A program made the translations under genes and the position numbers. Shown here one piece after another: positions 44,176 through 64,000 of a stretch of 64,000 nt of DNA (position 1 is its first letter; every line of letters starts with the position of its first letter). The stretch is from assembly GCA_016786565.1 (NCBI GenBank), contig JAEUVY010000127.1:4476-68475 (forward strand), in the 5' to 3' direction. The stretch comes from Flavipsychrobacter sp. GTDB lineage: Bacteria; Bacteroidota; Bacteroidia; Chitinophagales; Chitinophagaceae. The notes beneath the pieces are model-generated. The model worked only from the letters and a program-made list of their open reading frames with translations, was not told the origin of the DNA and made no database searches.

Positions 44176-44187
44176 CTCGTTGGTAGT

Positions 44188-45919: not shown

Positions 45920-46348
45920 CTACCTCGATGCGGTATATTTTGCCTGAACAAACAGATCATAATCCCTTTGCTTCATCCGGCCTCCATCCAGTGCCGCGGT
46001 AATAAGGCTTGCCAGCTTATGCAGCAACGCGTCCTTCACCTCTGGCGCAGCCTTTGCCAGCTCAGTTATCAGGCACCTGATTCTCGCATTTATATCTCCC
46101 TCTTCTGCGCATGTGTTCATTGCCGTAAGGGTCACCACCGCTTTTTCTAGTGCTGTCACTATGTGTCGCTTCAGCAGATCGTCCGCTTCTCCCGGTATCA
46201 GCAATGTCACTACATCTGAGGCCGGCGACTCCAGCATTACCTTCAGTGCCGTTGTTATCTGCAATGCCGTTTCTGCATGTGCTTCAACATACTCGTCAAA
46301 GTGTTGCACCAGCTGCCGTATCTTTTTTCTCATTTTATTACAGAACAT
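45920..46348 (-). CDS. Phage-cluster helical hypothetical protein
   Basis: 142 aa, predicted all-helical, sitting in the head-tail connector slot. Confidence 0.45.
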   Translation of the reverse strand: MFCNKMRKKIRQLVQHFDEYVEAHAETALQITTALKVMLESPASDVVTLLIPGEADDLLKRHIVTALEKAVVTLTAMNTCAEEGDINARIRCLITELAKAAPEVKDALLHKLASLITAALDGGRMKQRDYDLFVQAKYTASR

Positions 46349-46360
46349 ATTCTCTTGGTT

Positions 46361-46633
46361 TTAGTGTTTATAGAGTATCGCGTTTGTCTCCAGCGCATGT
46401 AGTCGTTCGGCATGCTCATTGAGGCGGCGGTGTATCATGGCTTCCTGGTCTTTCAACCCCTGTATCTGTTGTCCCTGCACCGTGGTCACTTGTGTCAGCT
46501 GTTTCAATTCCGTCACTATTTCATCCAGCCTCTTTATCACCTGATCCGTGATCACCTTTACCGTAAAGCCCAGTATTGTTGCCATTACACCGGCCGCCCC
46601 TATGAGTATCCATATTTTTATCTCACTCAGCAT
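46361..46633 (-). CDS. Membrane-anchored coiled-coil protein
   Basis: 90 aa. N-terminal TM helix IWILIGAAGVMATILGF, then heptad-like ..LDEIVTELKQLTQVTTVQGQQIQGLKDQ.. Confidence 0.5.
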   Translation of the reverse strand: MLSEIKIWILIGAAGVMATILGFTVKVITDQVIKRLDEIVTELKQLTQVTTVQGQQIQGLKDQEAMIHRRLNEHAERLHALETNAILYKH

Positions 46634-48666: not shown

Positions 48667-48969
48667 GATAGGGATTTGGTTGTTTTGTGACACAAAGGTC
48701 ATTCGCATTCCGGTGCCCCGCAAATCACGTTTCTGTCATTCGCATCTATTGCCATACCGTTGGCTGTCTGCTGCTTATCATAGATTTATTTCCGCTCCCA
48801 ATCCGTTCATACTCAGTCAGCTTACACATTTCATTCTGCCTGGCACCTCACATGTTCCACATTCTTTCGTTTGCAGCCGATCCTCCTACTCATATTAACG
48901 CAATTTTTGCTGAATATCCCCCGCCTGCACGCCCTCATGGTTCACGCAGAAATAATATCTTTGTTCCTT

Positions 48970-49995
48970 ATGGCATCCTTACAGGAACAAATTCTGCCCT
49001 ACGAGCAGGAAATTAATGCTTTCAACCCCGCAAACGCCGCCGACCTCGAGCAATTTCGCATCAGGTTCCTCGGCACAAAGGGTATTGTCAAACTGTTGGC
49101 AAATGAAATGAAGAACGTCCCGCCGGAAGGACGTAAAGAAGCCGGCATGTTGCTCAATTCATTCAAACAACTTGCCGAGGCCCGCTACGAGCAGTTCGCC
49201 CATCTCAAAGACGAGGGCAACGCCAACGCTGCGGCAATAGATACAAGCCTACCGGGTGCGGCACTGCCTATCGGCACTCGCCACCCGCTGCGCATTGTCG
49301 AGAACCGCATTGTCGATATTTTCAGCAAGATCGGTTTCAGTGTAGCTACCGGCCCCGAGATCGAGGACGACTGGCACAACTTTACGTCACTCAACATGCC
49401 CGAGAATCACACAGCTCGCGACATGCAGGACACGTTCTACGTGGCGCAGAACCCCGACTGGGTATTGCGTACCCATACGTCTTCCGTACAGGCGCGCATC
49501 CTCGAGACCACTCCGCTTCCGGTTCGTGTCATTTGTCCCGGCCGTGTTTATCGCAACGAAACCATATCTGCTCGTGCGCACTGCTTCTTCCATCAGTTCG
49601 AAGGACTGTACGTAGATAAGAAGGTGTCTTTCGCCGACCTCAAGCAAACGCTCTATTATTTCGTTACAGAGATGTTCGGCCCCGATACCAAGGTGCGCTT
49701 CCGCCCTTCCTACTTCCCGTTCACCGAGCCAAGCGCTGAAATGGATATCTCATGTACTGTATGTGGCGGTTCAGGCTGTAGCCTGTGCAAGCATACCGGC
49801 TGGGTCGAGATCCTCGGCTGCGGCATGGTGCACCCCAACCTCCTGCGCAATTTCGGTATCGACCCCGAGGTTTATTCCGGTTTCGCGTTCGGCATGGGTG
49901 TAGAACGTATCACACAGATCAAATATCAGGTGAACGATCTCCGTCTCTATTCTCAGAACGACGTTCGCTTCCTCCGGCAGTTCCAAGGGTTGTGA
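48970..49995 (+). CDS. pheS: Phenylalanine--tRNA ligase alpha subunit
   Basis: ..FRIRFLGTKG.., ..HPL.., ..RTHTSSVQAR.., ..FHQFEGL.., ..FTEPSAEMD.., ..GFAFGMGVERI.. are class II aaRS PheS motifs. Start taken at ATG 48970. Confidence 0.96.
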   Translation: MASLQEQILPYEQEINAFNPANAADLEQFRIRFLGTKGIVKLLANEMKNVPPEGRKEAGMLLNSFKQLAEARYEQFAHLKDEGNANAAAIDTSLPGAALPIGTRHPLRIVENRIVDIFSKIGFSVATGPEIEDDWHNFTSLNMPENHTARDMQDTFYVAQNPDWVLRTHTSSVQARILETTPLPVRVICPGRVYRNETISARAHCFFHQFEGLYVDKKVSFADLKQTLYYFVTEMFGPDTKVRFRPSYFPFTEPSAEMDISCTVCGGSGCSLCKHTGWVEILGCGMVHPNLLRNFGIDPEVYSGFAFGMGVERITQIKYQVNDLRLYSQNDVRFLRQFQGL

Positions 49996-50016
49996 CGACA
50001 CTAAATATCATTCCAT

Positions 50017-50052
50017 AAAAAAGGAGCCACTACAGTACAGTGGCTCCTTTTT
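50017..50052. terminator. Bidirectional rho-independent terminator between pheS and radA
   Basis: AAAAAA-GGAGCCACT-ACAGTAC-AGTGGCTCC-TTTTT. Confidence 0.85.
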
Positions 50053-50096
50053 CGTTTTCTAAATATTCTCTCGACAGTAACCGAAAAGGAATTACA

Positions 50097-51476
50097 TCAT
50101 GCAAAAAGCAATTTGTACACATCCTCCACCTTGTTCACCATCTTTATCTCGATCTTGTAGTTTTTCCTGTCCAGCCCCTTTGCATTCGCTTTTGGTATAA
50201 ATATTACATCCATACCCAATTTGTCTGCCTCGGCTATCCGCTGCTCTATCCTGTTCACAGCCCTTATCTCTCCGCTCAACCCTACCTCACCTACCAGACA
50301 GACATTAGATGGCAACGTTTTATCTTCATAAGACGATAATAATGAACACACTACCGCCAACTCTATCGATGGATCCTCTATTTTCAGTCCACCCGCTATG
50401 TTCACAAACACATCTTTAGCCCCAAAATGGAACCCACCCCGTTTTTCCAGCACCGCCAGCAGCAACTGCAGCCGTCTCAGGTCCATGCCGCTCACCGTTC
50501 TTTGCGGCGTTCCATACACGGCAGTCGTCACCAGGGCCTGCACTTCTATCATCAGCGGCCTCGATGCCTCCATCGTTGCTGCTATAGCTATACCGCTCAG
50601 CGGCTCGTCATGTTGAGATAATAAAATTTCAGATGGGTTCGTCACTGCGCGCATTCCCTGCTGCACCATCTCATAAATACCCAGTTCCGCCGTCGATCCG
50701 AACCTGTTTTTCAGTGTCCGCAGTATCCGGTAGGCATAATGTCGGTCTCCTTCAAACTGCAGAACCGTGTCCACCATATGCTCCAATACCTTCGGTCCCG
50801 CTATAGATCCGTCCTTCGTTATGTGACCAATTATGAACACCGGTATGTTCGATGTCTTCGCAAATCGTTGCAGCTCAGCGGCACACTCCCTCACCTGCGA
50901 CACACTGCCCGCCGCCGACTCCACATACGGCGACTCCAGCGTCTGTATAGAATCTATGATCAATACCTGCGGCTTCACCTTTTTCACTTCGTTAAAGATC
51001 GTCGCTGTGTCTGTCGCCGTCAGCAGGTACAGATTATTGTTGGTCACTCCCAGTCGCTCCGCACGCAACTTTATTTGTTGTGCGCTTTCCTCTCCCGATA
51101 CATATAGTGTCCTTATCGATTTCCATTGCAATGCGCATTGCAGAAACAAGGTACTCTTTCCTATGCCCGGGTCGCCCGCCACCAGTATCACCGATCCCGG
51201 CACCACACCGCCACCCAACACTCGGTTAAGCTCTGTATCCGGCGCTGGTAGCCGCCTTTCCTCTACTTGCTCTATTTCATCCAGCTTATGCGCCTTGTTT
51301 TTTTCTTTGTTGTCTCCGTCCTCCCAACCCTGCACATCTCCTCGTTTCTTTTCATCGCGCTGCACCACTTCTTCCACAAACGAATTCCATGTACCGCACG
51401 ACGGACACTTACCCGTCCATTTCGGTGTCTCATATCCGCATTGCTGACAGAAGAATGCTGATTTTATTTTTGCCAT
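50097..51476 (-). CDS. radA: DNA repair protein RadA/Sms
   Basis: N-terminal zinc ribbon FFCQQCGYETPKWTGKCPSCGTWNSF. Walker A GDPGIGKST. KNRFG motif. Lon-like C-terminal domain. Confidence 0.97.
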   Translation of the reverse strand: MAKIKSAFFCQQCGYETPKWTGKCPSCGTWNSFVEEVVQRDEKKRGDVQGWEDGDNKEKNKAHKLDEIEQVEERRLPAPDTELNRVLGGGVVPGSVILVAGDPGIGKSTLFLQCALQWKSIRTLYVSGEESAQQIKLRAERLGVTNNNLYLLTATDTATIFNEVKKVKPQVLIIDSIQTLESPYVESAAGSVSQVRECAAELQRFAKTSNIPVFIIGHITKDGSIAGPKVLEHMVDTVLQFEGDRHYAYRILRTLKNRFGSTAELGIYEMVQQGMRAVTNPSEILLSQHDEPLSGIAIAATMEASRPLMIEVQALVTTAVYGTPQRTVSGMDLRRLQLLLAVLEKRGGFHFGAKDVFVNIAGGLKIEDPSIELAVVCSLLSSYEDKTLPSNVCLVGEVGLSGEIRAVNRIEQRIAEADKLGMDVIFIPKANAKGLDRKNYKIEIKMVNKVEDVYKLLFA

Positions 51477-52100
51477 CGTTCGTTAAAGATACAACTTCAC
51501 CTACCGCCCGCACGACAGTTACGCCTTTACGATATCCACATTTTTTCATGCAGACCATAATTTACATTTTTCAGGAAATGAGATGCAGACCCTTCAAAAA
51601 TTTTCAGCGCGGCTTCATGCCATCGGGTGGTGGGGAGAAAAAGAATGGAACTCTTCGGACAACTTCCCCGGGGCTTGGGGTACCCCTAAAAACAGAGCCG
51701 CCGGAAGAATCCGGCAGCTCTTACTTACTAACCCATTAAATTCACAACTTGATGCAAATATACTACCGGTGGGGGTAGCAAAAAAATGGAATTGCAAACC
51801 GCCTCCATCAGTTTTATAGATATAGTCGGAAATTAATATCCCACGACAGTCACACCCAACTATTTGCTGCTTTTTTCTGCTAAATGGCCTCCTTTTTGTC
51901 ATTTTCTCTTCCCCAATAGCCACATTTCGTCAATACTAATATGAAATGGAGCAAACGAAACATTTACAATAATTTCATTCGTTTCGCCAAATAACGGATT
52001 TCTCCATGTCTTCCGCGCCGTTTTCTAACAATTATTATACCTGCGGGCTTACATCAATAACCTAAATTTGCTTGCCTCATTCAAGGCAGGTTTCAAAATT

Positions 52101-53831
52101 ATGAACGCAACATTCCAACCACTTCCGGTTAAAGAAAGGACTTTCCTCCCCAAAGACTTCACAGTCACCAATTGGGATACACTCAAACCATACTACGACG
52201 AACTCACCGAAAGAGAGATAACCTCTCCTTCCCAACTCGCTACCTGGCTCAGCAACATCTCCGAGCTCGAAGCAGTCATCAGCGAAGACGCTTGTTGGCG
52301 TCAGATAAAAATGACGTGCGACACAACCAACAAGGAAATTGAAGAAGCCTTCACTTTCTTCTGCATGGAGATCGAACCCAAGATCAAACCTTACACGTTT
52401 GCGCTCAACAAAAAACTCCTCGCCTGTCCGTTCGTCAAAGAACTCGATCCCGCCATGTACTTCCCCTACCTGCGCGGCGTAGAGAATGCGGCTCAATTGT
52501 ACCGCGAAGAGAACGTCGCGCTTCAGGCCGACCTCAATCTCCTCGCACAACAATACGGTGTCATCTCCGGTGCCATGAGTGTCGAGATCGACGGTAAGGA
52601 ATACACGCTGCAGCAGGCAGCCAAATTCCTGCAGAACCCCGAGCGCGATCTCAGGCAATCTGTATTTACAAAAGTGGCCGGTCGTCGTCTGGTTGATAAA
52701 GACAAACTCAACGAACTTTTCGATAAGCTCCTTTCCATTCGCCATCAGGTGGCCCGCAATGCCGGCTTTGATAACTACCGCGATTACAAATTCCGCGAAC
52801 TCGGTCGCTTCGACTATTCTGTCGAAGACTGTTTCGAATTCCACAAAGCAGTAAAAGAACACATCGTTCCGTTGCATGCCATGCTCGTTCGCAACCGGCA
52901 GCAGCGCCTCGGCGTCGATGTCATGCGCCCTTGGGATGGCGACGCCGAACCAAAAGGTACGCAGCCACTCCATCCTTTTACATCAGGAAAAGAGCTCGCA
53001 GAAAAAACCGTTGAGACCTTCAGTCGCCTGTCACCGTTCTTCAGCAACTGCCTCACTACCATGCAGGGCATGGAGCGTCTCGACCTCGAAAGCCGCAAAG
53101 GCAAGGCGCCGGGTGGCTACAACTGTCCGCTCGCCGAGACAGGAGTGCCGTTCATCTTCATGAATGCTGCCGGGACCATGGGCGATGTCATCACCATGAT
53201 GCACGAAGGCGGTCACGCTATCCACTCATTCCTCTCTCATCCGCTCCCGCTCACCGCGTTCAAAGAATATCCTATGGAGATCGCCGAACTCGCCAGCATG
53301 AGTATGGAGCTGTTCTCTATGGAACATTGGGATGTCTTCTTCAAAGATCAGACCGAACTCCACCGCGCACAACTCGAAGAGATGGAACGCATCATCTCGG
53401 TCCTTCCGTGGATCGCCACTATCGATAAGTTCCAGCATTGGCTCTATACCAATCCGGGTCACTCCGTTCAGCAACGCGAAGAACAATGGCTCGCCATACT
53501 CGACGAGTTCGCTACCGGCATCACCGACTGGTCCGGCTTCGACGAATACCGCCGCAACCTCTGGCAGAAACAATTGCACCTTTTCGAAGTTCCGTTCTAT
53601 TATATCGAATACGGAATCGCCCAGCTTGGCGCCATCGCCATGTGGCGGCAGTACCGCGGCAACAAACAACAGGCATTACAGAACTATCAGAACGCGCTCA
53701 GCCTCGGCTACACCAAAACACTAAAAGAATTATACGCTACCGCAGGCATCCGTTTCGACTTCTCACCGGCCTACATCAAAGAACTTTCAGATTTTGTAAC
53801 TCCTTTGTTGAAAGAGATGGGTGTAAAATAG
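52101..53831 (+). CDS. M3-family oligoendopeptidase (PepF-like)
   Basis: Zinc motif MMHEGGHAIH (HExxH). Size about 577 aa. Start taken at ATG 52101. Confidence 0.88.
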   Translation: MNATFQPLPVKERTFLPKDFTVTNWDTLKPYYDELTEREITSPSQLATWLSNISELEAVISEDACWRQIKMTCDTTNKEIEEAFTFFCMEIEPKIKPYTFALNKKLLACPFVKELDPAMYFPYLRGVENAAQLYREENVALQADLNLLAQQYGVISGAMSVEIDGKEYTLQQAAKFLQNPERDLRQSVFTKVAGRRLVDKDKLNELFDKLLSIRHQVARNAGFDNYRDYKFRELGRFDYSVEDCFEFHKAVKEHIVPLHAMLVRNRQQRLGVDVMRPWDGDAEPKGTQPLHPFTSGKELAEKTVETFSRLSPFFSNCLTTMQGMERLDLESRKGKAPGGYNCPLAETGVPFIFMNAAGTMGDVITMMHEGGHAIHSFLSHPLPLTAFKEYPMEIAELASMSMELFSMEHWDVFFKDQTELHRAQLEEMERIISVLPWIATIDKFQHWLYTNPGHSVQQREEQWLAILDEFATGITDWSGFDEYRRNLWQKQLHLFEVPFYYIEYGIAQLGAIAMWRQYRGNKQQALQNYQNALSLGYTKTLKELYATAGIRFDFSPAYIKELSDFVTPLLKEMGVK

Positions 53832-53864
53832 CCCGTTTACAGTATCCTATATTTCCAATAACTT

Positions 53865-53907
53865 AAAAAGCCTGCCAACTGTATAGTATCAGTTGACAGG
53901 CTTTTTT
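53865..53907. terminator. Bidirectional rho-independent terminator
   Basis: AAAAA-GCCTGCCAACTG-TATAGTAT-CAGTTGACAGGC-TTTTTT, lying between convergent genes. Confidence 0.85.
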
Positions 53908-53950
53908 GAATTCAAAGGTTTTCTTCTTCTTCAAGTAGAAATATCAGCCA

Positions 53951-54589
53951 CTAGTTGTTCAACAATTTCGCTGTTGCAATATCTACTCCGTCTATAGAAA
54001 TGTGCATATTATCTACCCACGCTCTTCCTGTACCAAATATCTGTGCCCCTGCTAATATATGCTGTGCGTTCTTACCATCGTAGTTCAGCTCAATGGTATA
54101 TTCCGTCCAGTCAGTAGTACCCTTTGCCGCGGTTTTCGCCATATTGTCAAATGCCAGAACTGAATCCTGTCCATCTATACGAAACCATAATCCTGCCCAT
54201 CCCCTCACATCTTCTGTTTTCAGGTAGCCGGTCAGCTTTATCTTTTGTCCGTTAAATCGTTCATCTATTATGGTCTTTGTCACAGTCCACCCCAGCACCC
54301 CGTTCCTTTCCAGCAATATAGAGCTTCGCCCATGCTGCTTCACCACCGTATCCGTATGACATATCTTCATCAGACTATCTACAGATATAGTTGTATCTCT
54401 TGGATGGCGGGGTATCCAGCGCTCCGGCATATTATTACTTCCCGGCGTTTCCATATCCAGGTTATAGTTTACCCTGGTCTGCAAAGGCTCACTTTCTTTC
54501 ACATGTTTCTTTCCGTGGAGAAAGCAACCGGTCATCGCTATAGCTAAACCGGCAATTATTGCAAATAATAGTACGTTTTGTTTTTTCAT
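53951..54589 (-). CDS. Lipoprotein with beta-sandwich (CBM-like) domain, function unknown
   Basis: Start taken at MKKQNVLLFAIIAGLAIAMTGCF (lipobox). Confidence 0.6.
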   Translation of the reverse strand: MKKQNVLLFAIIAGLAIAMTGCFLHGKKHVKESEPLQTRVNYNLDMETPGSNNMPERWIPRHPRDTTISVDSLMKICHTDTVVKQHGRSSILLERNGVLGWTVTKTIIDERFNGQKIKLTGYLKTEDVRGWAGLWFRIDGQDSVLAFDNMAKTAAKGTTDWTEYTIELNYDGKNAQHILAGAQIFGTGRAWVDNMHISIDGVDIATAKLLNN

Positions 54590-54949
54590 ACGGTGCGTAT
54601 TCTGTGTAAGATACTTAATAACGCGCTGCACGGGTATGATAAGATTGTCATCACGGCAGCATCTGTTATTCATCACTCATCAAAACTCAAGTTAGCTGGT
54701 GTTGCTTGCATAGGCAATTCCTTGCCTGTTACCGGCACTGTAACATTTACTACCTCAAACTTAATGTCATCAAACCATATTGTACCGGTGCCACTCAGCA
54801 AAGCACCATATCCTAAACCGGTAGCATTTTCAGGCACATTCCGACTTCGTTACACCCATCCTCAAAGAAATGGGGGTGAAGTAATTTGCTACTTAACATA
54901 ATGGCATTGGGGGAATGGGCACTTCACTCATTCCCCATTTTTTTGGGTG

Positions 54950-56263
54950 TCACCTTCCCTTCATCGACATGCTATGTAAAAACAATTCATACGCCTGGCG
55001 CCATCCTGTCCATTCCGCATCTGTGCCCAACGAAAAATTATGGAATACCGTGATCAGCTTGCTGCCGGTTTGCTCCAATACCTTACGCATCGCTTCCAGC
55101 CTTTCAAACGCCTGCTGTGTTGTCAGACCCGCTTCGTAGTGAGCGGTGGTGTCCATAAAACAGAAAGGGAACACCCTCAGATTGGTTTTCTTTTCTTGCT
55201 CAAGGTCATACCACATAAACGAACTTCCCGTTCCCGACCTGAAACCCAGGTGCGTACCATATCCCATACTATAGTCCTCTCTTATCCCCTCTGCAATTAG
55301 CCTTCGGTATGTCTGCGGCAGCACAGCGCGTATATAGTGCTGTCTCGATATCGCAGTGCTCTTCCCCGCCACAGTCTCCAGCACACCCCGCTCCGCCCGC
55401 ATCACACTTCCTTCGCCCGAGTAGTACGACGGATGTATCCCTATTATCCCCTCCTTAGCCAGGTTCTTGATCACGCGCACCATCGCCGGATGTTCAGGAT
55501 GTATGTTCTTATCAAACTTCGTCGTGCGCAGCGTCGACAGTACAAAATACGTCGGAATGAATCCATACTCTTTGTGCACCTGCCTCAGCCACCTGAACGA
55601 ATCATACGGATCCTTCTGCTTTTTCTTCAGTACCTGCGCCCGCAATCCTATCTCTTTCAGATTACCCGCCGCCAACGCTCTCAAAAAAGCACCCGCTATT
55701 CTCTTCGCACCCTTGTGCAGGTGCGCGTATGCCATATCTATATCATAGGTCGGCCTGAATACAAATTGCATTTCCGGTAGCTCCACGCTCCATCGCTTAA
55801 GCAATTCCTTTCTCAATGCATGCACCCACTCATCTACTATTGGTCGTTGCAGCCATCCGTTTTTGGTCAGTACACTTTCCGTCGCCGGATACCTGCCGTG
55901 TTTGTCCGGCACATATCCGCCATACTCCTCATATCGTGTTATCAGAAAAAAAATAGCAGAGAAAATATCAAAGGGCACGGTGTACCCATCTTCACTCATT
56001 GCGAATAGGGTAGGCAACTGCCCCCAACTACCCACCGCGGGTTTCACTGCGGCGGTACCCGTTTGCTGCAACAGACCTGCAACGGGCACACAGAACTTGC
56101 CCGCTTGCGGTATACCATAATACACAGCATACTCACTCGCATCTGCTTCCTCCTTGTTATCGGTAATGTGCACGTCCAGTTGCAGTCGTTCTTTTATCAG
56201 CCATCCGGTCACATACCTGAGACGCTCATTCACAAACGGACTATATACAACCACGGTCGCCAT
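54950..56263 (-). CDS. Conserved hypothetical protein (possibly polysaccharide deacetylase-like)
   Basis: 437-aa ORF with normal composition. The family call rests only on a remembered resemblance of the N-terminus (..VYSPFVNERLRYV..) to Bacteroidota proteins annotated this way. Confidence 0.45.
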   Translation of the reverse strand: MATVVVYSPFVNERLRYVTGWLIKERLQLDVHITDNKEEADASEYAVYYGIPQAGKFCVPVAGLLQQTGTAAVKPAVGSWGQLPTLFAMSEDGYTVPFDIFSAIFFLITRYEEYGGYVPDKHGRYPATESVLTKNGWLQRPIVDEWVHALRKELLKRWSVELPEMQFVFRPTYDIDMAYAHLHKGAKRIAGAFLRALAAGNLKEIGLRAQVLKKKQKDPYDSFRWLRQVHKEYGFIPTYFVLSTLRTTKFDKNIHPEHPAMVRVIKNLAKEGIIGIHPSYYSGEGSVMRAERGVLETVAGKSTAISRQHYIRAVLPQTYRRLIAEGIREDYSMGYGTHLGFRSGTGSSFMWYDLEQEKKTNLRVFPFCFMDTTAHYEAGLTTQQAFERLEAMRKVLEQTGSKLITVFHNFSLGTDAEWTGWRQAYELFLHSMSMKGR

Positions 56264-56269
56264 GTGTTT

Positions 56270-57646
56270 CTATTTTCCCTGGCGTTCCTTCCACATCTTG
56301 TTAAACGACTTCTCTGCAAATCGCAGTGGCGTTCGGTGTTTCACCCATGTGTCTTCAAACAGTTTGTTCACCACCTTTCCCTTCATATTCGCGCTCGCCA
56401 GGTTCAGCATCGTCCGGCTCAGCATCGCGCGCTCCCACAGTGCCCACACTGCATGTTCACCAAAACCATTCAGATTGTCCTCTACAGCAATATGCCTGTT
56501 CTCCAGCAACATCTCATGTATGTTGATCTTCACCGGACATACCTCTGTACAGTTGCCGCACAAGCTGCTCGCATAACTCAGATGTTTGAATTCATTCATC
56601 CCCTCCAGGTGCGGAGTTATCACCGCGCCTATCGGGCCGCTGTAAGTAGTGCCATAGGCATGGCCACCTATATTCTTATATACCGGGCATGCGTTCAGGC
56701 AACTTCCGCACCTGATGCAGTACATGCTCTCACGCACTTCCTTCCGCAGCAGATTCGTTCTGCCGTTATCCAGCAATATCACATACATCTCCTCCGGTCC
56801 GTCAGTTTCATTCGCCCTTCTCGGTCCCGTAAAAATGCTGTTGTACACAGTCACTTGTTGCCCCGTGCCAAAAGTCGCAAGCAACGGCCAGAACAGTGGC
56901 AGATCATTGATCGATGGCAGCAATTTTTCTATGCCCACCACCGCTATATGTGTCTTCGGAAACGTTGTCGACAGTCGCCCATTCCCCTCATTCTCGGTCA
57001 CACACACACCGCCCACATCGGCCAGCAAAAAGTTACCGCCGGTGATACCTACTTCCGCCGTCACATACTTCTCTCTCAGGTTCTTGCGCGCCACCAGTGT
57101 TATCTCCGACGGGCTCAGGTGTGGCTCAGTGCCCAGCTTCTCATGAAATAGCTTGGCCACATCTTCCTTGCTCTTGTGCATCGCCGGCGTCACTATATGG
57201 TAGGGCGGCTCCTCGTCCAGTTGTTGTATATATTCGCCCAGGTCCGTCTCCACCGATTCTATACCATTTTTCGCAAAAAACGAATTCAGGTGCAGCTCTT
57301 CCGTCACCATGCTCTTTGCCTTCACCACCTGGCGTGTGTTCTTCTCCTTGCATATCTGCAGTATAGCCTGCCTTGCTTCTTCAGCGTCCTCAGCCCATAT
57401 CAGCTTACCGCCGTTGGCGGTAAAATTTTTTTCAAATTGCTCCAGGTACTTGTCAAGGTTCTCAATGGTCTTCCACTTTATGTTCTTGGCGCGCCTGCGT
57501 GCCAGCTCCAGGTTCGAATATTGCTTCTTACCTTTCACCACACTGTCATTATACTTCTGTATGTTGAACGCCACCTTTCGCTTGTGCTCCAGGTCATGCG
57601 CCTTCACCTCACTCTTCGCAAGAAATATGTTCTGTTGATTACCCAT
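56270..57646 (-). CDS. LutB/LldF-family iron-sulfur lactate-utilisation protein
   Basis: Two ferredoxin-type clusters, CIRCGSCLNACPVY and CGNCTEVCPVKI, plus a LUD-type N-terminal region. 458 aa. Confidence 0.82.
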   Translation of the reverse strand: MGNQQNIFLAKSEVKAHDLEHKRKVAFNIQKYNDSVVKGKKQYSNLELARRRAKNIKWKTIENLDKYLEQFEKNFTANGGKLIWAEDAEEARQAILQICKEKNTRQVVKAKSMVTEELHLNSFFAKNGIESVETDLGEYIQQLDEEPPYHIVTPAMHKSKEDVAKLFHEKLGTEPHLSPSEITLVARKNLREKYVTAEVGITGGNFLLADVGGVCVTENEGNGRLSTTFPKTHIAVVGIEKLLPSINDLPLFWPLLATFGTGQQVTVYNSIFTGPRRANETDGPEEMYVILLDNGRTNLLRKEVRESMYCIRCGSCLNACPVYKNIGGHAYGTTYSGPIGAVITPHLEGMNEFKHLSYASSLCGNCTEVCPVKINIHEMLLENRHIAVEDNLNGFGEHAVWALWERAMLSRTMLNLASANMKGKVVNKLFEDTWVKHRTPLRFAEKSFNKMWKERQGK

Positions 57647-57758
57647 GTAAACTCATTAATTATAACCCGGCGATACGTGCTCGTCAGCACCACTCATTAC
57701 ATGCTTCATAGGATGGGATAGAACAAACCTACACAATATATTCTTTGTGTGGTAGTTC

Positions 57759-59009
57759 CTACTGTTGCTTCTTCGGTCCGCCACCATTGCCCTTGTACCT
57801 CCGCTTTTTCTTGTTCGCTTGTCCTTCACCACCACTACCACTGCTGCGCTCACTGCGGGCTGCAGGTGTTGGTGCCGCGCCAAATTCCGCTGGAACCGGC
57901 AATTTCTCTACCTCCTTCCCTATCAGCTTCTCTATCTTATGAAACTTGAACTGCTCCTTGTCGGTGATGAACGTGTAAGCCGTTCCCTTTGAGGCGGCCC
58001 TCGCTGTCCTGCCTATACGGTGCACATAGTCCTCTCCGTCATGCGGCACATCATAGTTGATCACCAGATCTATGTCTTCTATGTCTATACCACGGCTCAG
58101 TATGTCTGTTGCCACCAGTATAGATAGTTTCTTACTCTTGAAATCAAGCAACACCTGCTCCCGTTGCTCCTGCTCCAGGTCCGAGTGTATACTACCCACC
58201 GGAAATTTCGCACGCTTCAGCTCTTCAAACAGCTTCTTCACACTCAGCTTGCTCGAGCAGAATACGACCACACTCGCAAATTCCTTCTGTTTCAGCACAT
58301 ACTTCACCAGCGCGGGTTTCTGCGGTTCATATACCAGGAACGCGCCCTGTGTTATCTGTTCCGGTGGCTTCGATATCGCAATGTTCACTTCGGCCGGGTT
58401 CACCAATATGGTATTGGCAAGCTTCCTGATGGCCGGTGGCATCGTCGCCGAGAAAAGCAGGTTCTGCCTTTCGTTCGGCAGATAAGAAATGATCTTGATG
58501 ATGTCCTCATAAAAACCCATATCCAGCATCCTGTCCGCCTCATCCAGTATCAGATACTTCAGTCCGCCCAGCTTCACATAACCCATGTTCAGGTGCGATA
58601 TCATCCTGCCCGGCGTACATATCACTATGTCCACGCCCGTTTCCAGTGCCTTCCGCTCCGATGCGAACAATGCTCCGCCCGTTCCTCCGTAAACCGATAT
58701 GAAACTTATGTTGGTATAGTACGCTATCCCTTCCAATGCCTGCGATATCTGTGTCGCCAACTCGCGCGTCGGCACTATGATCAGCGCGTTCACCGATCGT
58801 TCGTCATGCGGCTTCGTCAGCAATTGCTCCAGTACAGGCAGCAAAAATGCAGCCGTCTTGCCCGTACCCGTTTGAGCCGCGGCTATTATGTCTCTTCCTT
58901 CCAGTATCAGTGGTATTACCTGTGCTTGTACAGGGGTGGCTTTTTCATAGCCCATGGCATCTATGCCATCCATCAGATCATCATCAAAGCCAAAATCAGC
59001 GAAATACAA
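57759..59009 (-). CDS. DEAD-box ATP-dependent RNA helicase (RhlE-like) with basic C-terminal tail
   Basis: Motif I AQTGTGKT. Motif II LILDEADRMLD. SAT motif (LFSATMP). Motif VI HRIGRTARA. Confidence 0.95.
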   Translation of the reverse strand: MYFADFGFDDDLMDGIDAMGYEKATPVQAQVIPLILEGRDIIAAAQTGTGKTAAFLLPVLEQLLTKPHDERSVNALIIVPTRELATQISQALEGIAYYTNISFISVYGGTGGALFASERKALETGVDIVICTPGRMISHLNMGYVKLGGLKYLILDEADRMLDMGFYEDIIKIISYLPNERQNLLFSATMPPAIRKLANTILVNPAEVNIAISKPPEQITQGAFLVYEPQKPALVKYVLKQKEFASVVVFCSSKLSVKKLFEELKRAKFPVGSIHSDLEQEQREQVLLDFKSKKLSILVATDILSRGIDIEDIDLVINYDVPHDGEDYVHRIGRTARAASKGTAYTFITDKEQFKFHKIEKLIGKEVEKLPVPAEFGAAPTPAARSERSSGSGGEGQANKKKRRYKGNGGGPKKQQ

Positions 59010-59131
59010 AATATGTAGAATTTTTGCTAAGATACCAATTCACCGCCACATACACCGCTTGCACCTCACATCAATGTCATTATTACAAGGCTCTATATAC
59101 CCCTCCCGCAAAATAAACTACCTTTAACCCC

Positions 59132-59848
59132 ATGATTCCGGCTTGGCAAAAAGGAGTTGTTACACACATAGAACAGGCTACGTCCAACACACGCCGGTAT
59201 TGGGTAGAAATGCCCGAAAAACCCGACTTCAATTTTGTCCCCGGTCAGTTCGTCACCCTCGATCTCCCCATCCACGAGCAGCGCAACAAACGTTGGCGCA
59301 GCTACAGCATCGCCTCTATGCCTGATGGCACCAATGTCATCGAACTCATCATTGTGCATTTGCACGGTGGGGTAGGGTCTCGCTACATTTTCGAGAACGT
59401 CAAGGTCGGCGACTCGCTCACACTGCGTGGCCCGCAGGGCATTTTCACGTTACCCGCCGACAAAGACAAAGAACATTTCTTCATCTGCACAGGCACCGGC
59501 ATCGCCCCGTTCCGCAGCATGATCCGGTACATTCACCACCACAATATCAAAGGCTACAAGATCAATCTCATCTTCGGCACACGCACCATCGCCGATCTTC
59601 TGTACCACGATGAGATGCTCGATCTTCAGAACAAGGTCGAAGGATTCCGCTATATACCCACGCTCTCCCGCCAGCACTGGGAGGGCCACACCGGCTATGT
59701 ACACGAGATTTATGAAGAGTTATGCGCAACCCATCAGCCTGCATCATTCATGTTGTGCGGCTGGCGCGAAATGATCGACGAAGCGCGCGAGCGCATCCTC
59801 GCCCTCGGTTACGACAAACGCGATGTGCAGATAGAGATCTACGGCTGA
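59132..59848 (+). CDS. Ferredoxin-NADP reductase-like FAD/NAD(P)-binding oxidoreductase
   Basis: FAD-binding RSYSIAS. NAD(P)-binding FICTGTGIAPF. 238 aa. Confidence 0.82.
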   Translation: MIPAWQKGVVTHIEQATSNTRRYWVEMPEKPDFNFVPGQFVTLDLPIHEQRNKRWRSYSIASMPDGTNVIELIIVHLHGGVGSRYIFENVKVGDSLTLRGPQGIFTLPADKDKEHFFICTGTGIAPFRSMIRYIHHHNIKGYKINLIFGTRTIADLLYHDEMLDLQNKVEGFRYIPTLSRQHWEGHTGYVHEIYEELCATHQPASFMLCGWREMIDEARERILALGYDKRDVQIEIYG

Positions 59849-60270
59849 TCCGCGTTTGCCACCTCGTCAGCGGCTCCGAAATCATACTCTATCGCTTCCC
59901 ACAATTCTATTTTATTCCCTTCCGGGTCCATTATGTGGGCAAACTTCCCGTAATCATACACCTGCAGCTCACCTATTTGCTCCACTCCCTCTTTTTTCAA
60001 CTCGCCCAGCAGCCACTCCAGGTCCTCAACCCGCATATTGATCATGAAATCCTTTCCCGATGGCGCGAAATACTGAGTATCCGCCTTGAACGGATTCCAC
60101 ACGGTACTGCCCTTCTTCGACGGGTCTTCCGCATCCCTCCAGTCAAATACCGTCCCATAAGGGTCATTACCCAAACCCAGATGTTTGTGATACCACTCGC
60201 GCACACCATTAGGGTCCTGTGCCTTAAAGAAAATACCACCTATACCTGTTACTCGTTTTTTGTTTTCCAT
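59839..60270 (-). CDS. VOC (glyoxalase/bleomycin-resistance) family protein
   Basis: 143 aa. ..GIGGIFFKAQDP.. and ..KFAHIMDPEGNKIELWE are typical VOC strands. Confidence 0.7.
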   Translation of the reverse strand: MENKKRVTGIGGIFFKAQDPNGVREWYHKHLGLGNDPYGTVFDWRDAEDPSKKGSTVWNPFKADTQYFAPSGKDFMINMRVEDLEWLLGELKKEGVEQIGELQVYDYGKFAHIMDPEGNKIELWEAIEYDFGAADEVANADQP

Positions 60271-60340
60271 CTTCCTTACCTTTTAAAAACAACGAAGGCC
60301 CTGATTTCACAGAGCCCTCGCCTAAAATTTGTTATTGTTC

Positions 60341-60736
60341 TTATTCTATCGTCGCTGAGAACGCCTCCAGCTGCTCCATTATCTGTTGCTTGTTGGCTAT
60401 TATGTTCTCCTGACGCATTTTCAGCACCTGCGCAAACATATTCCTTTGCTTCACAGTCAATGCGCTGTATCTGCTCTTGTCAGCATCATTCTGTGCATGG
60501 CGCATCTTCTCCCGTGTCGACCCGAATTCGGCATTCGCCAATTTGTTGATCTCTGTGAAAAGCTGCTCAGCTTCGGCTTTCTTATCTTTATCCAGCAGTT
60601 TTCCCAACTCCGCCACCAGTGCCGAGAACTCACTTTTCGTCACTTCGGTCTGTTCGGTAACTACAACTTGCTGCGCCATAGCAGGCAACCCTGCAGTCAG
60701 CAAAAGTAAAGATGCGGATAAGACTTTAATATTCAT
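60341..60736 (-). CDS. Small secreted helical protein (paralogue of the next gene)
   Basis: Signal peptide MNIKVLSASLLLLTAGLPAMAQQ. The C-terminus ..LEAFSATIE resembles ..LEFAATIY of its neighbour. Confidence 0.6.
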   Translation of the reverse strand: MNIKVLSASLLLLTAGLPAMAQQVVVTEQTEVTKSEFSALVAELGKLLDKDKKAEAEQLFTEINKLANAEFGSTREKMRHAQNDADKSRYSALTVKQRNMFAQVLKMRQENIIANKQQIMEQLEAFSATIE

Positions 60737-60774
60737 GCTTTGTAGGTATGTGGCACGTTTCCGCACCCTTGCAA

Positions 60775-61167
60775 TTAATAGATGGTCGCTGCAAATTCCA
60801 ACAACTTAGCCTTTATAAGCACTCTGTTTGTTGCCAGATTCGGCTTCAGGTTCCACGCCGCCTGATAGATCACAGTCTGGTTATTCAGAATAGTCTCATA
60901 AGCGGTCTTTGCTGCTGGTGTCGGAGCTGTCAGTATGCTGTTCTTGGTCACACCAAGCACACTCAGCATCATGGTGTGTATTTCTTCCCATGTTGCCTGA
61001 GCCGCAGTCATGCTTCCGGCGCCTATCTGGCTGTCCATTAGATTCACTTTCGCGGTAAATGACGCTACCGTCACAGGTGCCGCTGCACTATACGCCGCTG
61101 CATGCTGGGTCGGAGCCACGCTCGCTGCAGCCGTCAAAAGGAAACACGCTATTAAAATACGCTTCAT
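60775..61167 (-). CDS. Small secreted helical protein
   Basis: Signal peptide MKRILIACFLLTAAASVAP. 130 aa. Confidence 0.6.
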   Translation of the reverse strand: MKRILIACFLLTAAASVAPTQHAAAYSAAAPVTVASFTAKVNLMDSQIGAGSMTAAQATWEEIHTMMLSVLGVTKNSILTAPTPAAKTAYETILNNQTVIYQAAWNLKPNLATNRVLIKAKLLEFAATIY

Positions 61168-61216
61168 TGTAGTTGAATTTTATTGATAAAGGTAATAAAA
61201 TGAATTAAAAAATCTG

Positions 61217-63139
61217 CTATTCACTATCTAAGACAGTAGCTCCCCCCTCATATAGTTGGGTCTTATACTTCAAAGAAGGCGATTTTAACAATTCACCCAG
61301 CCCCAGCTCACTCCATTTAGCATCTATTTTCGCTATTGTAGCGTCGTCCGCAGCTATTATATTCGGCCACGGCCTGTCAAAGTTATCGTACCGCTTTGTC
61401 TTCCTTGTTCCGTCCAGCCCCAATATCTGCTGCTGGTCCCCGGCATAGAAATTATCCCTTCTCGGGTCCAGATTGTTACAAAAACGCCACAAAACATCAG
61501 CAATATCGTGTATGTCCACGGTGTGCTCCACATAGATCACCATCTTCACTCCCTCCATTCCTGCCGCTCCGGCAATTCTCGTGTGCAGGTCGCGCACATG
61601 GCCGGGCCGATCCTTTTTCATAGACACCATCAACACCGGTATCTCCCATTGGCGCATCAGCACATCGTTCACGCCGTTCACCTCCGGCATATCAGCCATT
61701 ATCTGCTTTGCCGAGAATGCTGCCGATATTTTGTAAGGCTTCAACTCCTCGGTCTGTTCTTCTTCGGTCTTCCGCGTACCATCTATGCACATCTTACCGC
61801 CAAAACCCATCTTCGAGCAGCTATGGTCCAGCACATCCATCGGGCCCTGACTGAAGTACACATCGGTCACAGGGTTCAGATTGTCAAATACCTCTTTCGC
61901 CAGCTTCCCATAGTCGTCTATTTTTATTCCGTTCTGCCCCACACCGTTTGCCAGCACCAGAATCTTATTAAACATCATTTGTCCTGCCCCCCACATCGCA
62001 TTCATCACTTTCTGACCCTGTCCGGCATATTCCTTGTTTATCGTCGCTATCACCAGATTATGGAACACTCCTTCCACCGGCATATTCATATCAGTGATCT
62101 CAGGCACCATCGTCATTTTTATCGGCGTAAGGAAGATGCGCTCGGTAGCCTTCCCTATCCACGCGTCCTCCTGCGGCGGTATACCCACTATCGTAGCCGG
62201 GTATATGGCATCCTTTTTATGTGTTATCGCCGTCACATGAAACTTCGGGTACCAATCTGCCAGAGAATAATATCCTGTATGGTCCCCGAACGGCCCTTCC
62301 CATATAAGCTCTTCGCTCGGATCCACATATCCTTCGATAATGAAATCCGCATCTGCAGGCACTTCTATTTCGGGCTGGGTGATGCAGCGCACCATCTCCA
62401 CTTTCTTCTTGCGCAGAAATCCGGCCAGCATGTACTCATCCACATTCTCTGGTAGCGGAGCAGTGGCCGCGTATGTATATACCGGGTCTCCTCCCAGTGC
62501 CACTGCAACCGGCATTCTTTTTCCCAGTTTCTTGTACTCATTATAGTGCCTCGCCGACACTTTATGCTTGTGCCAGTGCATACCTGTCATTTGCTCATCA
62601 AACACTTGCATGCGGTACATGCCTATGTTACGCATTCCCGTATTCGGATCCTTGGTGTGTATCGCCGGCAGGGTTATGAACCTGCCTCCATCCTCCGGCC
62701 AGCACTTCAGCACTGGTATCTTGCTCAGGTCCGGCTTTGCCATCACCACTTCCTGGCAGGCGCCACGGCCACTCACCACTTTCGGCATGTATGAGGCAAA
62801 CTTACCCAGCTCGGGCAGCATCGCCAACTTGTCCAAGATACCGGCCTTGGGCGCAGACATCTTTTTCATCAGACTGTCTATGTCGTTCATCACCTCGTCC
62901 AGGTCGTTCACACCCAGTGCGATACACATTCTCCGTTCACTACCCATACTATTTATGAGTAGCGGAAACTGGGTCCCCGTGTTTTCAAATAGCAATGCCT
63001 TGTTCCGGTCAGGTGTCTTAGACACCCTGTCTGTGATCTCCGATATCTCCAGCTCCGGATCCACAAATGCCTTGATCCGCACCAGCTCTCCTGCCTCTTC
63101 CAGCTTTTCTACAAACGCTCTCAACGATTTATATGCCAT
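61217..63139 (-). CDS. UbiD-family (menaquinone/ubiquinone pathway) decarboxylase
   Basis: 640 aa. The N-terminus ..SLRAFVEKLEEAGELVRIK.. and the core ..GGRFITLP..TKDP.TG..N.GMYRMQV.. are typical of UbiD. Confidence 0.88.
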   Translation of the reverse strand: MAYKSLRAFVEKLEEAGELVRIKAFVDPELEISEITDRVSKTPDRNKALLFENTGTQFPLLINSMGSERRMCIALGVNDLDEVMNDIDSLMKKMSAPKAGILDKLAMLPELGKFASYMPKVVSGRGACQEVVMAKPDLSKIPVLKCWPEDGGRFITLPAIHTKDPNTGMRNIGMYRMQVFDEQMTGMHWHKHKVSARHYNEYKKLGKRMPVAVALGGDPVYTYAATAPLPENVDEYMLAGFLRKKKVEMVRCITQPEIEVPADADFIIEGYVDPSEELIWEGPFGDHTGYYSLADWYPKFHVTAITHKKDAIYPATIVGIPPQEDAWIGKATERIFLTPIKMTMVPEITDMNMPVEGVFHNLVIATINKEYAGQGQKVMNAMWGAGQMMFNKILVLANGVGQNGIKIDDYGKLAKEVFDNLNPVTDVYFSQGPMDVLDHSCSKMGFGGKMCIDGTRKTEEEQTEELKPYKISAAFSAKQIMADMPEVNGVNDVLMRQWEIPVLMVSMKKDRPGHVRDLHTRIAGAAGMEGVKMVIYVEHTVDIHDIADVLWRFCNNLDPRRDNFYAGDQQQILGLDGTRKTKRYDNFDRPWPNIIAADDATIAKIDAKWSELGLGELLKSPSLKYKTQLYEGGATVLDSE

Positions 63140-63221
63140 GCAACAAAGGTAGCAACGTCAGCCTTACCAGCCTCCACTGCCACCCTTCCCGGTCATAGAT
63201 TCTCTATATTCTTAAATAAGG

Positions 63222-63734
63222 CTACACCCCTGCATCAAACTCGCCCGTTATCACCGGCGTCACAGCCACATATGTTACCGCCGCCTGCGTACTTCTGTCA
63301 TCAAATGCCAGACTATACCGTATTTCACGCACCCTGTAACCGTCCGTCCTTTGCTGGCTCCTTGTGTTCTTCCTTATTAGGTACCCGAAACCCTCTCCCG
63401 CACTCCACCCGTGCAACGCCTTGTTCAACTTCCACTCCAACTCATAATACCCCAATGCTGCCTCCTTATATTCCTCCGGGGTACCGCTTGCCGTCGGCCC
63501 ATTCGGCGCGAAACCCAGCAACACACACACTGTCCCCTCAGCCGTCTGTACGTTCGACCCCAGATTGTCATATTCAAACGTTTCCATGTCTATCAGCACA
63601 CACGGCCACTGCACCGCCGGCCTGCTCTTGGCGTTCAGTTGTCCTCTGTCCTGATCCACCCAGGCTATCTCAGGCACTACAGCGCCTATACGCTCCTGCA
63701 TGTTTTTCAATAATCTCGAAAATGGCGAATTCAT
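63222..63734 (-). CDS. Phage-like structural protein (neck/tail-completion-like)
   Basis: 170 aa. The pattern ..IGAVVPEIAWVDQDRGQL...PAVQWPCVLID... resembles head-tail connector/tail-completion proteins as I remember them. The call is weak. Confidence 0.4.
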   Translation of the reverse strand: MNSPFSRLLKNMQERIGAVVPEIAWVDQDRGQLNAKSRPAVQWPCVLIDMETFEYDNLGSNVQTAEGTVCVLLGFAPNGPTASGTPEEYKEAALGYYELEWKLNKALHGWSAGEGFGYLIRKNTRSQQRTDGYRVREIRYSLAFDDRSTQAAVTYVAVTPVITGEFDAGV

Positions 63735-63757
63735 CTCTATTCAGTTTTTAGTTTTCC

Positions 63758-64000
63758 TCACGCCTGTTCCTTCACAGGCACACCATAGGTCTCACTCCAA
63801 TATTCCCTTGGTATATTCACTATCGCATTCAGCTCTTTGTCTATAGCCACTCTTTTGTACAGCTGTTCCACATCCATTTCTTTGGCAAATACAAACCGCC
63901 CCCCATCGGTGTCGTACCCATACGATCGCAATACGCTCAAAAACCGGGCACTGTTCAGCATCGACGCGGTATACGCTATATCTGCCTTCGTTATCTCAAA
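63758..64000 (-). CDS. 3' end of a gene running off the right edge (possibly phage portal, Mu gp29/DUF935-like C-terminus)
   Basis: The frame is open from 64000 down to the stop at 63758 (FEITKADIAYTASMLNSARFL...NIPREYWSETYGVPVKEQA). The terminal ..W.E.YG.P.. resembles remembered DUF935 tails. Only 80 codons are visible. Confidence 0.3.
   Translation of the reverse strand, partial: FEITKADIAYTASMLNSARFLSVLRSYGYDTDGGRFVFAKEMDVEQLYKRVAIDKELNAIVNIPREYWSETYGVPVKEQA

Follow-up and report, generated by a model that had tools for sequence, protein, structure and literature searches.

Gene transfer agents (GTAs) are known from a handful of lineages, mostly Alphaproteobacteria, and it is an open question how often the domestication of phages yields devices for DNA exchange. 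The GTA of Rhodobacter capsulatus (RcGTA) has a siphovirus-like tail, and PBSX of Bacillus subtilis is a non-propagating particle that packages host DNA. PBSX has been cited as GTA-like, and FpGTA of Faecalibacterium, a recently reported GTA-like element outside the Alphaproteobacteria, consists of two operons about 125 kb apart (PMC12946183). The RcGTA “genome” is multilocus, with loci that must be co-regulated in trans (PMC5026251); encoding at more than one chromosomal locus is a point of likeness to the split element described here. This element lies in a 64,000-nucleotide stretch of DNA from Flavipsychrobacter sp. (assembly GCA_016786565.1, contig JAEUVY010000127.1, positions 4,476 to 68,475), hereafter called the window. 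It consists of a head-tail module at 36.8 to 48.7 kb and of a packaging module, two genes of which are visible at the 3′ limit of the window. The minus strand carries both end genes, at a distance of 14,499 bp from the prohead protease gene that begins the head-tail module (longest open reading frame [ORF] starting at 48723). From their content, descent, and layout, we consider it probable that the two gene sets are the halves of one vertically inherited, Mu-derived, contractile-tailed, GTA-like particle system without autonomy.

The preliminary description of this DNA had likened the 170-amino-acid (aa) protein encoded by one of the end genes to head-tail connector or tail-completion proteins. 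This protein matched no Pfam family and matched phrog_6911 in PHROGs (E = 4.5e-28). An AlphaFold (AF2) model built with 39 homologs reached a mean pLDDT of 85 and, by Foldseek (E of about 1e-6), matched T5 p142, lambda gpU, and the diffocin and pyocin R2 collars, which are tail terminators. At an E value of about 1e-6, the model also matched one chain in the native GTA virion entry 6tba. In addition, the protein was 27% identical to a Porphyromonas phage012a protein annotated as “tail completion” (E = 5.5e-15). The Foldseek matches and this identity argue that the 170-aa protein is, as modeled, a tail terminator; together with phrog_6911, they uphold a role in tail completion and speak against a head protein. 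When viral contigs were scanned with the single 170-aa sequence, only one short locus was returned. The second end gene runs out of the window, and its translated portion, which ends in NIPREYWSETYGVPVKEQA before the stop codon, corresponds to positions 263 to 336 of the 336 positions (the last 74) of Pfam Portal_Mu (E = 4.2e-5) and also matches phrog_35074. Its score of 23.5 bits falls just below the 23.9-bit cut-off because only 80 residues lie inside the window. In the related loci L001 and L095 (relatives are designated by L numbers throughout), the complete gene encodes 372 aa (L001 against Portal_Mu, E = 2.6e-62), and the C terminus of a Mu gp29/DUF935 portal suspected at this position was thereby confirmed. 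The portal is 35% identical to residues 22 to 370 of the 853-aa phage012a portal and represents a short form in which the C-terminal extension of about 480 aa found in phage homologs is absent. Both genes at 63.2 to 64 kb thus have phage homologs.

As an exact-sequence search with the 170-aa protein matched no record, the sequence past 64 kb was read from the close relatives L001 and L095 (96 to 99% identical). Genes 87 to 96% identical to the 170-aa gene are present in Flavipsychrobacter and Chitinophagaceae metagenome-assembled genomes and in metagenomes (L001 to L003, L005, and L095 to L097). Where portal and terminase genes had been anticipated, these relatives carry, in order, thyA, EGF-repeat genes, a TPR protein gene, a TerS-like gene (154 aa), TerL (523 aa; phrog_38, 3e-70), a 189-aa gene, a Mu gp36-like adaptor, an antisense 120-aa gene, the portal, the terminator, and UbiD, followed by the same host genes as in the window. 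This packaging/neck module measures 5.3 kb, has host genes at both ends, and contains neither capsid nor tail genes, so that it is not a separately bounded full prophage. A second complete prophage at 63 to 64 kb was rejected on this ground. A capsid-forming PICI-type satellite was rejected as well, since there is no integrase and the capsid gene lies apart from the packaging genes.

To trace the origin of the two modules, IMG/VR was scanned with an alignment of the major capsid protein (MCP), and the loci found were then mapped by tblastn. In about 45 IMG/VR loci (42 to 58% MCP identity, contigs of up to 44 kb), the packaging genes, running outward from TerS through TerL, adaptor, and portal to the terminator, stand head-to-head with the protease, MCP, and subsequent genes. 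Porphyromonas phage012a is organized likewise, with two divergent modules. Among deposited phages, those closest to the element are Mu-like transposable phages of Porphyromonas gingivalis (33 to 35 kb) and Flavobacterium myophages. The annotation of BK068093.1 lists a repressor, a MuA-like transposase, a MuB-like protein, and Gam, then the divergent module pair, with endolysin and holin genes after the capsid gene as well as a “neck” gene and an 853-aa portal. Identities to phage012a were 31% for TerS, 43% for TerL, 35% for the adaptor, 35% for the portal, 27% for the terminator, 27% for the protease, and 49% for MCP. On this sequence evidence, the ancestor was evidently a Mu-like transposable phage of Bacteroidota. 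A sister lineage of the element has both modules reading away from a single intergenic region of about 430 bp. The idea that the end genes belong with the cluster at 36.8 to 48.7 kb is therefore sound, as the two sets are adjacent in the related phages and in the sister lineage. Their placement “upstream and collinear, where a portal would be expected” is not, because the packaging module of this family is divergent from the protease-capsid-tail genes. Given this divergent ancestral layout, the same-strand layout in the window is derived and points to a rearrangement.

A phylogenetic analysis of MCP sequences places the proteins of at least 73% identity in one clade with a long stem, which contains all split elements. 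The adjacent-divergent L022, L023, and L026 form a basal or sister branch, and L116, a shorter contig on which the protease adjoins TerS divergently, has the same arrangement. The other clade members have no terminase before the protease within the visible sequence. Upstream of the protease lie pheS and radA in the window, L010, L012, and L093 (the last on a 4.05-Mb contig), and clpX (L006), a peroxiredoxin gene (L008), moxR (L092), or dinB (L119) elsewhere. Among metagenome loci fetched by TerL, all 12 with at least 1.3 kb visible upstream of TerS were without protease or capsid genes there. In GCA_044225795.1, about 126 kb separates the modules, which share a strand with the head-tail module first (the reverse order), and in GCA_030426665.1 they are convergent, with about 73 kb between them. 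The latter genome and L104 keep the context of TPR, packaging module, and UbiD although UbiD is only 79 to 81% identical, and the packaging module must therefore have been there since before the divergence, with the head-tail module having moved. Synteny across relatives, which had been proposed as a check, thus reveals modules that are adjacent and divergent, or 14.5, about 73, or about 126 kb apart, in every relative orientation and with differing host neighbors; by this comparison, the window's same-strand layout with its 14.5-kb gap is one of several outcomes and specific to its lineage. In L107 (355 to 2565, Ga0208507_1015764), yet another arrangement is seen, a tail-fiber homolog immediately preceding TerL on its strand without an intervening TerS match. 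In L026, the protease and capsid genes are separated by some 2 kb of additional sequence (6697 to 8793). The “viral” regions of about 12 kb that represent L010 to L026 in IMG/VR start exactly at the protease and end at the fiber genes, and may be provirus calls on apparently host-fixed genes.

We then considered selection and descent, using the Nei-Gojobori ratio of nonsynonymous to synonymous substitution rates (dN/dS) for the window against close relatives, with L001 standing in for the genes past 64 kb. Ratios were 0.005 to 0.19 in 20 of 21 element genes, the exception being the gene in the tape-measure position (0.56). They amounted to 0 to 0.005 for MCP, 0.01 for the tube, 0.03 to 0.06 for sheath, protease, TerL, and portal, and 0.05 to 0.19 for the baseplate genes, terminator (0.09 to 0.19), and adaptor; TerS, TerL, and portal together ranged from 0.03 to 0.10, and the flanking pheS, radA, and UbiD from 0.02 to 0.04. 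Synonymous divergence (dS) was 0.26 to 0.98 in element genes compared to 0.23 to 0.92 in flanking host genes. Against L012, for instance, dS was 0.26 for pheS, 0.23 for radA, 0.29 for MCP, and 0.31 for the protease, and against L003 it was 0.81 for UbiD, 0.82 for the portal, and 0.76 for the terminator. In more distant comparisons, MCP matched RadA and PheS in conservation (92% identity for MCP, 91% for RadA, and 89% for PheS between the window and L093) and exceeded UbiD and the DEAD-box helicase (85% for MCP, 81% for UbiD, and 82% for the helicase between the window and GCA_030426665.1). All structural ORFs were full length in every relative compared, and synteny with host genes was kept down to about 80% host protein identity. 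Baseplate and fiber proteins were 29 to 68% identical where MCP was 73 to 92% identical. As a molecular signature, this is that of a long-resident, vertically inherited, functional gene set and not of a decaying prophage. Vertical descent and purifying selection, as expected of a GTA, are thus seen in dN/dS, dS, synteny, and the single MCP clade. Two alternatives had originally been offered for the split: a prophage broken by a rearrangement, or particle genes maintained as dispersed chromosomal loci, as in GTAs. The dN/dS ratios, the co-divergence with the flanks, and the several arrangements agree with dispersed loci; the rearrangement is real, but it was neither recent nor inactivating, the split being ancient and the genes intact.

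Upstream regions of TerS and the protease gene, aligned from six genomes, share a common architecture, i.e., an A-rich stretch, two to three CTATG(A/G)TA boxes, TTTG(C/T), about 20 nucleotides, and CTTTGTG near the start codon. The Bacteroidetes promoter consensus consists of TTTG at −33 and TAnnTTTG at −7, to which the TTTG(C/T) and CTTTGTG elements presumably correspond. The window has an A-rich stretch, CTATGATA-type boxes, TTTGCG (−33-like), and CCTTTGTG (−7-like) upstream of the protease gene, and the adjacent-divergent sister lineage has one copy at each end of its intergenic region. An nhmmer profile built from protease-upstream regions only recovered the held-out TerS-upstream region of GCA_044225795.1 (E = 2.8e-7), and the TerS side of L023 only marginally. 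Its sole significant match in the window was the region upstream of the protease gene (48689 to 48790); no third copy, and hence no further candidate regulon member, was found there. A gapped pattern, which is post hoc and circular, matched a single time in the window (48693 to 48780; 0.02 matches expected) and a single time in L095, immediately upstream of TerS, while the short motifs ATCTATGATA and CCTTTGTGTCAC were indistinguishable from chance in the window. Each module may accordingly have been kept as an autonomous late transcription unit answering to the same regulator. With two promoter copies, a breakpoint between them would leave both modules functional.

Compared to the phages, the element has lost the early region for transposition and lysogeny, the amidase endolysin, the holin, the “neck” protein, and the C-terminal 480 or so residues of the portal. 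No homologs of the phage012a repressor, MuA, or MuB were present in the window or in any fetched locus. Likewise, no transposase, repressor, integrase, or amidase/holin cassette was found near either locus (about 10 kb of flank around the packaging locus), the flanks consisting of mreB, mreC, a 181-aa ORF in the mreD position, carB, pheS, UbiD, TPR, and thyA. The loci examined hence contain no replication, integration, transposition, or lysogeny-control genes, and TerS, TerL, portal, adaptor, terminator, protease, MCP, sheath, tube, baseplate, and fiber genes are all full length and make up an intact phage-like head, tail, and packaging set, as expected of a GTA. A functional Mu-like prophage would have MuA, MuB, and a c-type repressor beside its structural genes, which is not the case here, nor do the modules make up a contiguous packageable genome, being separated by 14.5 kb of housekeeping genes in the window and by 73 to 126 kb elsewhere. 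R-type tailocins and extracellular contractile injection systems have a contractile tail without capsid, portal, and terminase. Neither type fits this element, and both were rejected, as MCP, portal, TerS, and TerL are kept under strong purifying selection.

Two genes were gained in the chromosomal clade, one for a presumably secreted, charged 189-aa protein and, in most lineages, one for an antisense 120-aa putative membrane protein. The 189-aa protein, encoded between TerL and the adaptor gene (L001, 7350 to 7919, plus strand; also L090, L022, L023, and L026), appears by eye to have an N-terminal signal peptide and a C-terminal tail that is very acidic and basic. It had no Pfam or PHROG match and was found in the chromosomal clade only, being absent from the related phages. 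The antisense gene, located between adaptor and portal (L001, 8384 to 8746, minus strand), looks by eye like that of a multi-pass membrane protein. It is present in L001 to L003, L005, L090, L091, L095 to L097, L098, L099, L104, and L115, and its dN/dS of 0.01 to 0.04 indicates more constraint than on its neighbors. Its product, which matched no Pfam family and has no counterpart in the phage relatives, may have been added as a holin-like or regulatory protein. In several lineages of the clade, a gene for a CHAP peptidase separates the head genes from the sheath gene, as in L008 (11742 to 12269), L092 (11833 to 12399), and L119 (11684 to 12235).

Based on these observations, we propose the following scenario. 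The early region (transposase, MuB, repressor, and Gam), the amidase/holin cassette, the “neck” gene, and the portal extension would have been lost in a chromosomal lineage. A breakpoint in the divergent intergenic region would have separated the modules, both keeping their own copy of the late-type promoter/operator and hence each remaining a working transcription unit. A single inversion over the packaging module and the adjacent 14.5-kb host block would then have given the layout of the window. A common regulator would turn on both loci, capsids, portal, terminase, and contractile tails would assemble in trans, and the terminase would package host DNA by headful, as is expected of Mu-like ancestors. 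The element would not propagate its own genes as a phage, because it has no replication, transposition, or integration functions and its loci are mostly too distant for one head. We infer from the gene set that the element packages and transfers DNA.

Table 1. Coordinates of the modules, the intervening host block, and the regulatory region in the window
Feature	Position	Strand	Basis or remark
Baseplate and fiber genes	36806..42535	−	phrog_5233, phrog_4930, phrog_38413
Tape-measure-position gene, 373 aa, low-complexity, fast-evolving	42539..43660	−	Position
Tail sheath (DUF2586), tail tube, and 107-aa gene in tail-chaperone position	43852..45842	−	Pfam and PHROGs
Pair of small conserved genes, 90 and 142 aa, separating capsid and sheath	45920..46633	−	Position and sequence kept across clade
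Major capsid protein (HK97-type, Phage_capsid_2)	46643..47557	−	phrog_267 1.4e-33, Pfam PF19821
Prohead protease/scaffold (Mu gpI-like), first gene of module	47674..48723	−	phrog_11321 1e-56, weak Pfam Mu-like_Pro
Promoter/operator region (predicted) upstream of protease gene	48689..48790	−	Alignment, nhmmer profile
Host chromosomal block between modules, not part of element	48724..63139	Mixed	Pfam, synteny
Spacer between terminator gene and UbiD, 82 bp	63140..63221	−	Contains TACCTTTG right before UbiD ATG
Tail terminator (tail completion; predicted), 170 aa	63222..63734	−	Last gene of packaging/neck module
Mu-type (DUF935/gp29) portal, C-terminal 80 codons, gene exits window	63758..64000	−	Portal_Mu match

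The features of the window are listed in Table 1. The true start of the protease gene is likely near 48666, since relatives are called at 329 to 331 aa. The longest-ORF starts of both pheS (TTG, 48871) and the protease (TTG, 48723) are probably too early, the relatives of the former being called at 341 aa and those of the latter at about 330 aa, and with the later starts the divergent intergenic region between them measures about 300 bp. MCP had 1,515 homologs, the best 120 of which were 73 to 99% identical and about 304 aa long, many of them on contigs of 0.2 to 4 Mb. The 90- and 142-aa genes (dN/dS, 0.04 to 0.09) matched no informative family in Pfam or PHROGs and are probably head-completion or neck proteins. 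The sheath matched Pfam DUF2586 (5.7e-54), and the set of sheath, tube, and 107-aa genes matched phrog_907, phrog_4579, and phrog_19076, with a dN/dS of 0.008 to 0.07. The gene in the tape-measure position had no match in Pfam or PHROGs and is only 58 to 64% identical between relatives whose other proteins are 81 to 100% identical; its 373 aa are few for a tape measure. The baseplate and fiber set comprises a DUF6046-like hub (DUF6046 is annotated in relatives), a baseplate hub, four small or medium genes, the phrog_38413 protein, a 167-aa gene, and a 247-aa fiber-like gene, is collinear in all relatives, and has a dN/dS of 0.05 to 0.13. At its fiber end, the module adjoins mreB and mreC, and its last stop codon lies within the end of a convergent ORF of 181 aa that occupies the mreD position (36264 to 36809) and had no Pfam match.

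The host block contains pheS (plus strand), radA, an M3 peptidase gene (plus), a 241-aa gene, a DUF7033 gene, lutB, a DEAD-box helicase gene, an FNR-like reductase gene (plus), a glyoxalase-like gene, two small genes, and UbiD. Pfam and the ORF map agree with the intervening genes named in the preliminary description (pheS, radA, M3 peptidase, lutB, helicase, reductase, and UbiD) and with the minus-strand placement of the phage-like genes. The two small genes (60341 to 60766 and 60775 to 61167), the only host-block genes scanned against PHROGs, had no match. Host-block genes have a dN/dS of 0.01 to 0.08, and the block is syntenic in L001, L095, L093, L091, and L104, with or without the head-tail module adjoining. 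A hairpin check of the 82-bp spacer next to the terminator gene found no terminator-like hairpin, as had been stated. The spacer has TACCTTTG right before the UbiD start codon, which we take to be a fit to the −7 consensus; with a −7-like box of its own, UbiD need not be co-transcribed with the terminator gene. A functional link through such co-transcription was rejected for this reason and because the adjacency is lineage specific. A −7-like box of the type (T/G)ACCTTTG precedes both UbiD (63140 to 63221) and the protease gene (48667 to 48969). GC content shows no step at either module border, and neither tRNA genes nor bracketing, att-like repeats were found in searches at and around the loci. 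Elsewhere in the window, a 1,120-aa RVT_1 (reverse transcriptase) protein is encoded at 18353 to 21715 (minus strand) in a low-GC stretch at about 17 to 23 kb (37% GC, compared to 45 to 55% in the rest of the window) and may be a defense-type or retroelement reverse transcriptase on an acquired island.

The main rival of a GTA-like system is a PBSX-like killer, which would package host DNA without useful delivery, or another host-beneficial particle, such as a defense or kin-discrimination device. The selection and vertical-descent evidence fits such a particle equally well. It would also account for the contractile tail with a full baseplate and fiber set, a structure common to PBSX and R-type tailocins, and for the fastest divergence being that of the baseplate and fiber proteins (29 to 68%, against 73 to 92% for MCP), as expected of determinants of target specificity. 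Yet TerS, TerL, and portal, which pure tailocins lose, are under constraint as strong as that on the tail genes (dN/dS, 0.03 to 0.10), and the regulators and lysis genes of PBSX are retained within one contiguous locus, a layout that the present element does not share; we thus regard a particle with another function as rather unlikely. A Mu-like prophage broken by a recent rearrangement and now decaying as a cryptic remnant without function is very improbable. Such a remnant would explain why the early region and the amidase/holin cassette are missing, why the portal is shorter than in phage relatives, and why the modules were separated by what was indeed a rearrangement. However, none of the 21 structural ORFs is disrupted or shortened in relatives with saturated synonymous sites, dN/dS is 0.005 to 0.19 with MCP conserved like RadA and PheS, and the split state, common to the whole clade in at least five host contexts, already contradicts decay.

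IMG/VR classes many of these regions as viral, and L022, L023, and L026 have their modules adjacent on contigs of 17 to 21 kb with flanks beyond view, which could befit an autonomous or mobilizable virus with its missing functions elsewhere, or a satellite or helper resource of another phage. Since element dS equals host-flank dS, host synteny lasts to about 80% host protein identity, there is no integrase, transposase, or att-like repeat, and the modules can be 126 kb apart, we find this quite improbable. That a prophage fragment was joined to the chromosome by an assembly or binning error is hardly credible: the window and most relatives do come from metagenome assemblies, but the junctions of pheS with protease and of terminator with UbiD recur in independent assemblies (L010, L012, L093, L001 to L003, L095, L096, L091, and L104), and this recurrence across samples already contradicts an artifact. 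Several points nonetheless weigh against a GTA-like system. The particle, the packaged DNA, and the transfer are all deduced, the system being known here from genes alone. In the lineage of the window, the span from TerS to the fiber genes, host block included, is about 31.7 kb and would fit a head sized for phages of 33 to 35 kb, so that distance alone would not keep the element from carrying its own genes here, although the separation of 73 to 126 kb excludes self-packaging in other genomes. The adjacent-divergent L022, L023, and L026, whose flanks lie outside the visible sequence, may still be complete phages. Statistical support for the shared promoter/operator comes from a single genome pair, and for the lineage of the window the sharing is suggestive, as it relies on the post hoc pattern; the protease-upstream profile misses the TerS-upstream regions of L091 and L001. 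Finally, no lysis system was identified in the lineage of the window, from which the CHAP gene of several relatives is absent, leaving it without an identified lysin.

A GTA-like system remains our preferred reading, and a more specific version can be put forward tentatively, namely, that the element is an independently evolved, Mu-derived, contractile-tailed Bacteroidota GTA, widespread in freshwater and soil Chitinophagaceae-type bacteria, with two freely relocatable modules joined by a duplicated late promoter/operator. “Widespread” refers here to capsid proteins of at least 73% identity, which make up more than 120 clusters at 90% identity; the taxonomic label is based on four record or source names (Flavipsychrobacter, Chitinophagaceae, Bacteroidota, and “uncultured Bacteroidetes”). 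If this reading is true, the ancestral phage was pre-adapted to break-up and domestication by its layout with divergent promoters. The candidate would come from abundant environmental Bacteroidota, with an identifiable phage ancestor, a living sister lineage in the ancestral layout, and several independent arrangements, and would offer a natural series for studying the loss of phage autonomy and the co-regulation of dispersed particle genes. If these are host genes, their IMG/VR entries inflate the numbers of prophages and “viruses” credited to Chitinophagaceae-type bacteria of lake and soil metagenomes. Neither a Bacteroidota GTA nor this element was found described in the literature searched, the coverage of which was incomplete, and novelty is provisional. 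One candidate paper (PMC12142844) was set aside, as it deals not with this element but with unrelated Acidobacteria-like contigs.

Among known systems, the Mu-like Bacteroidota phages (phage012a and relatives, BK068093.1, and the Flavobacterium phages lotta8 and pippi8) have homologous packaging genes, protease, and MCP. Unlike phage012a-type phages, the element is interrupted by host genes and is without repressor, MuA-like transposase, MuB, Gam, endolysin, holin, “neck,” and 853-aa portal, and its tail is of the myovirus type, in contrast to the non-contractile tail with a long tape measure of phage012a. Like PBSX, it is chromosomally fixed and contractile tailed and has retained capsid and packaging genes, whereas PBSX, from another phylum and another phage ancestry, occupies one contiguous locus that includes a repressor and a lysis cassette of its own. 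We know of no report of PBSX being split by housekeeping genes. Two separated operons are a trait in common with FpGTA, which differs in being podovirus-like and from Firmicutes. With RcGTA, the element shares phage-derived structural genes without replication or integration functions, vertical inheritance, purifying selection, and a tail terminator whose predicted fold matches a chain of the GTA virion entry 6tba. Transfer is known for RcGTA, and FpGTA is backed by packaged-DNA sequencing, whereas the present element is known through its genes. It differs further from RcGTA in its apparently independent origin from a Mu-like transposable phage of Bacteroidota, in its contractile sheath/tube tail with a full baseplate, and in being split within the morphogenesis genes, with terminase and portal on one side and capsid and tail on the other, where RcGTA has one core head-tail cluster and accessory loci.

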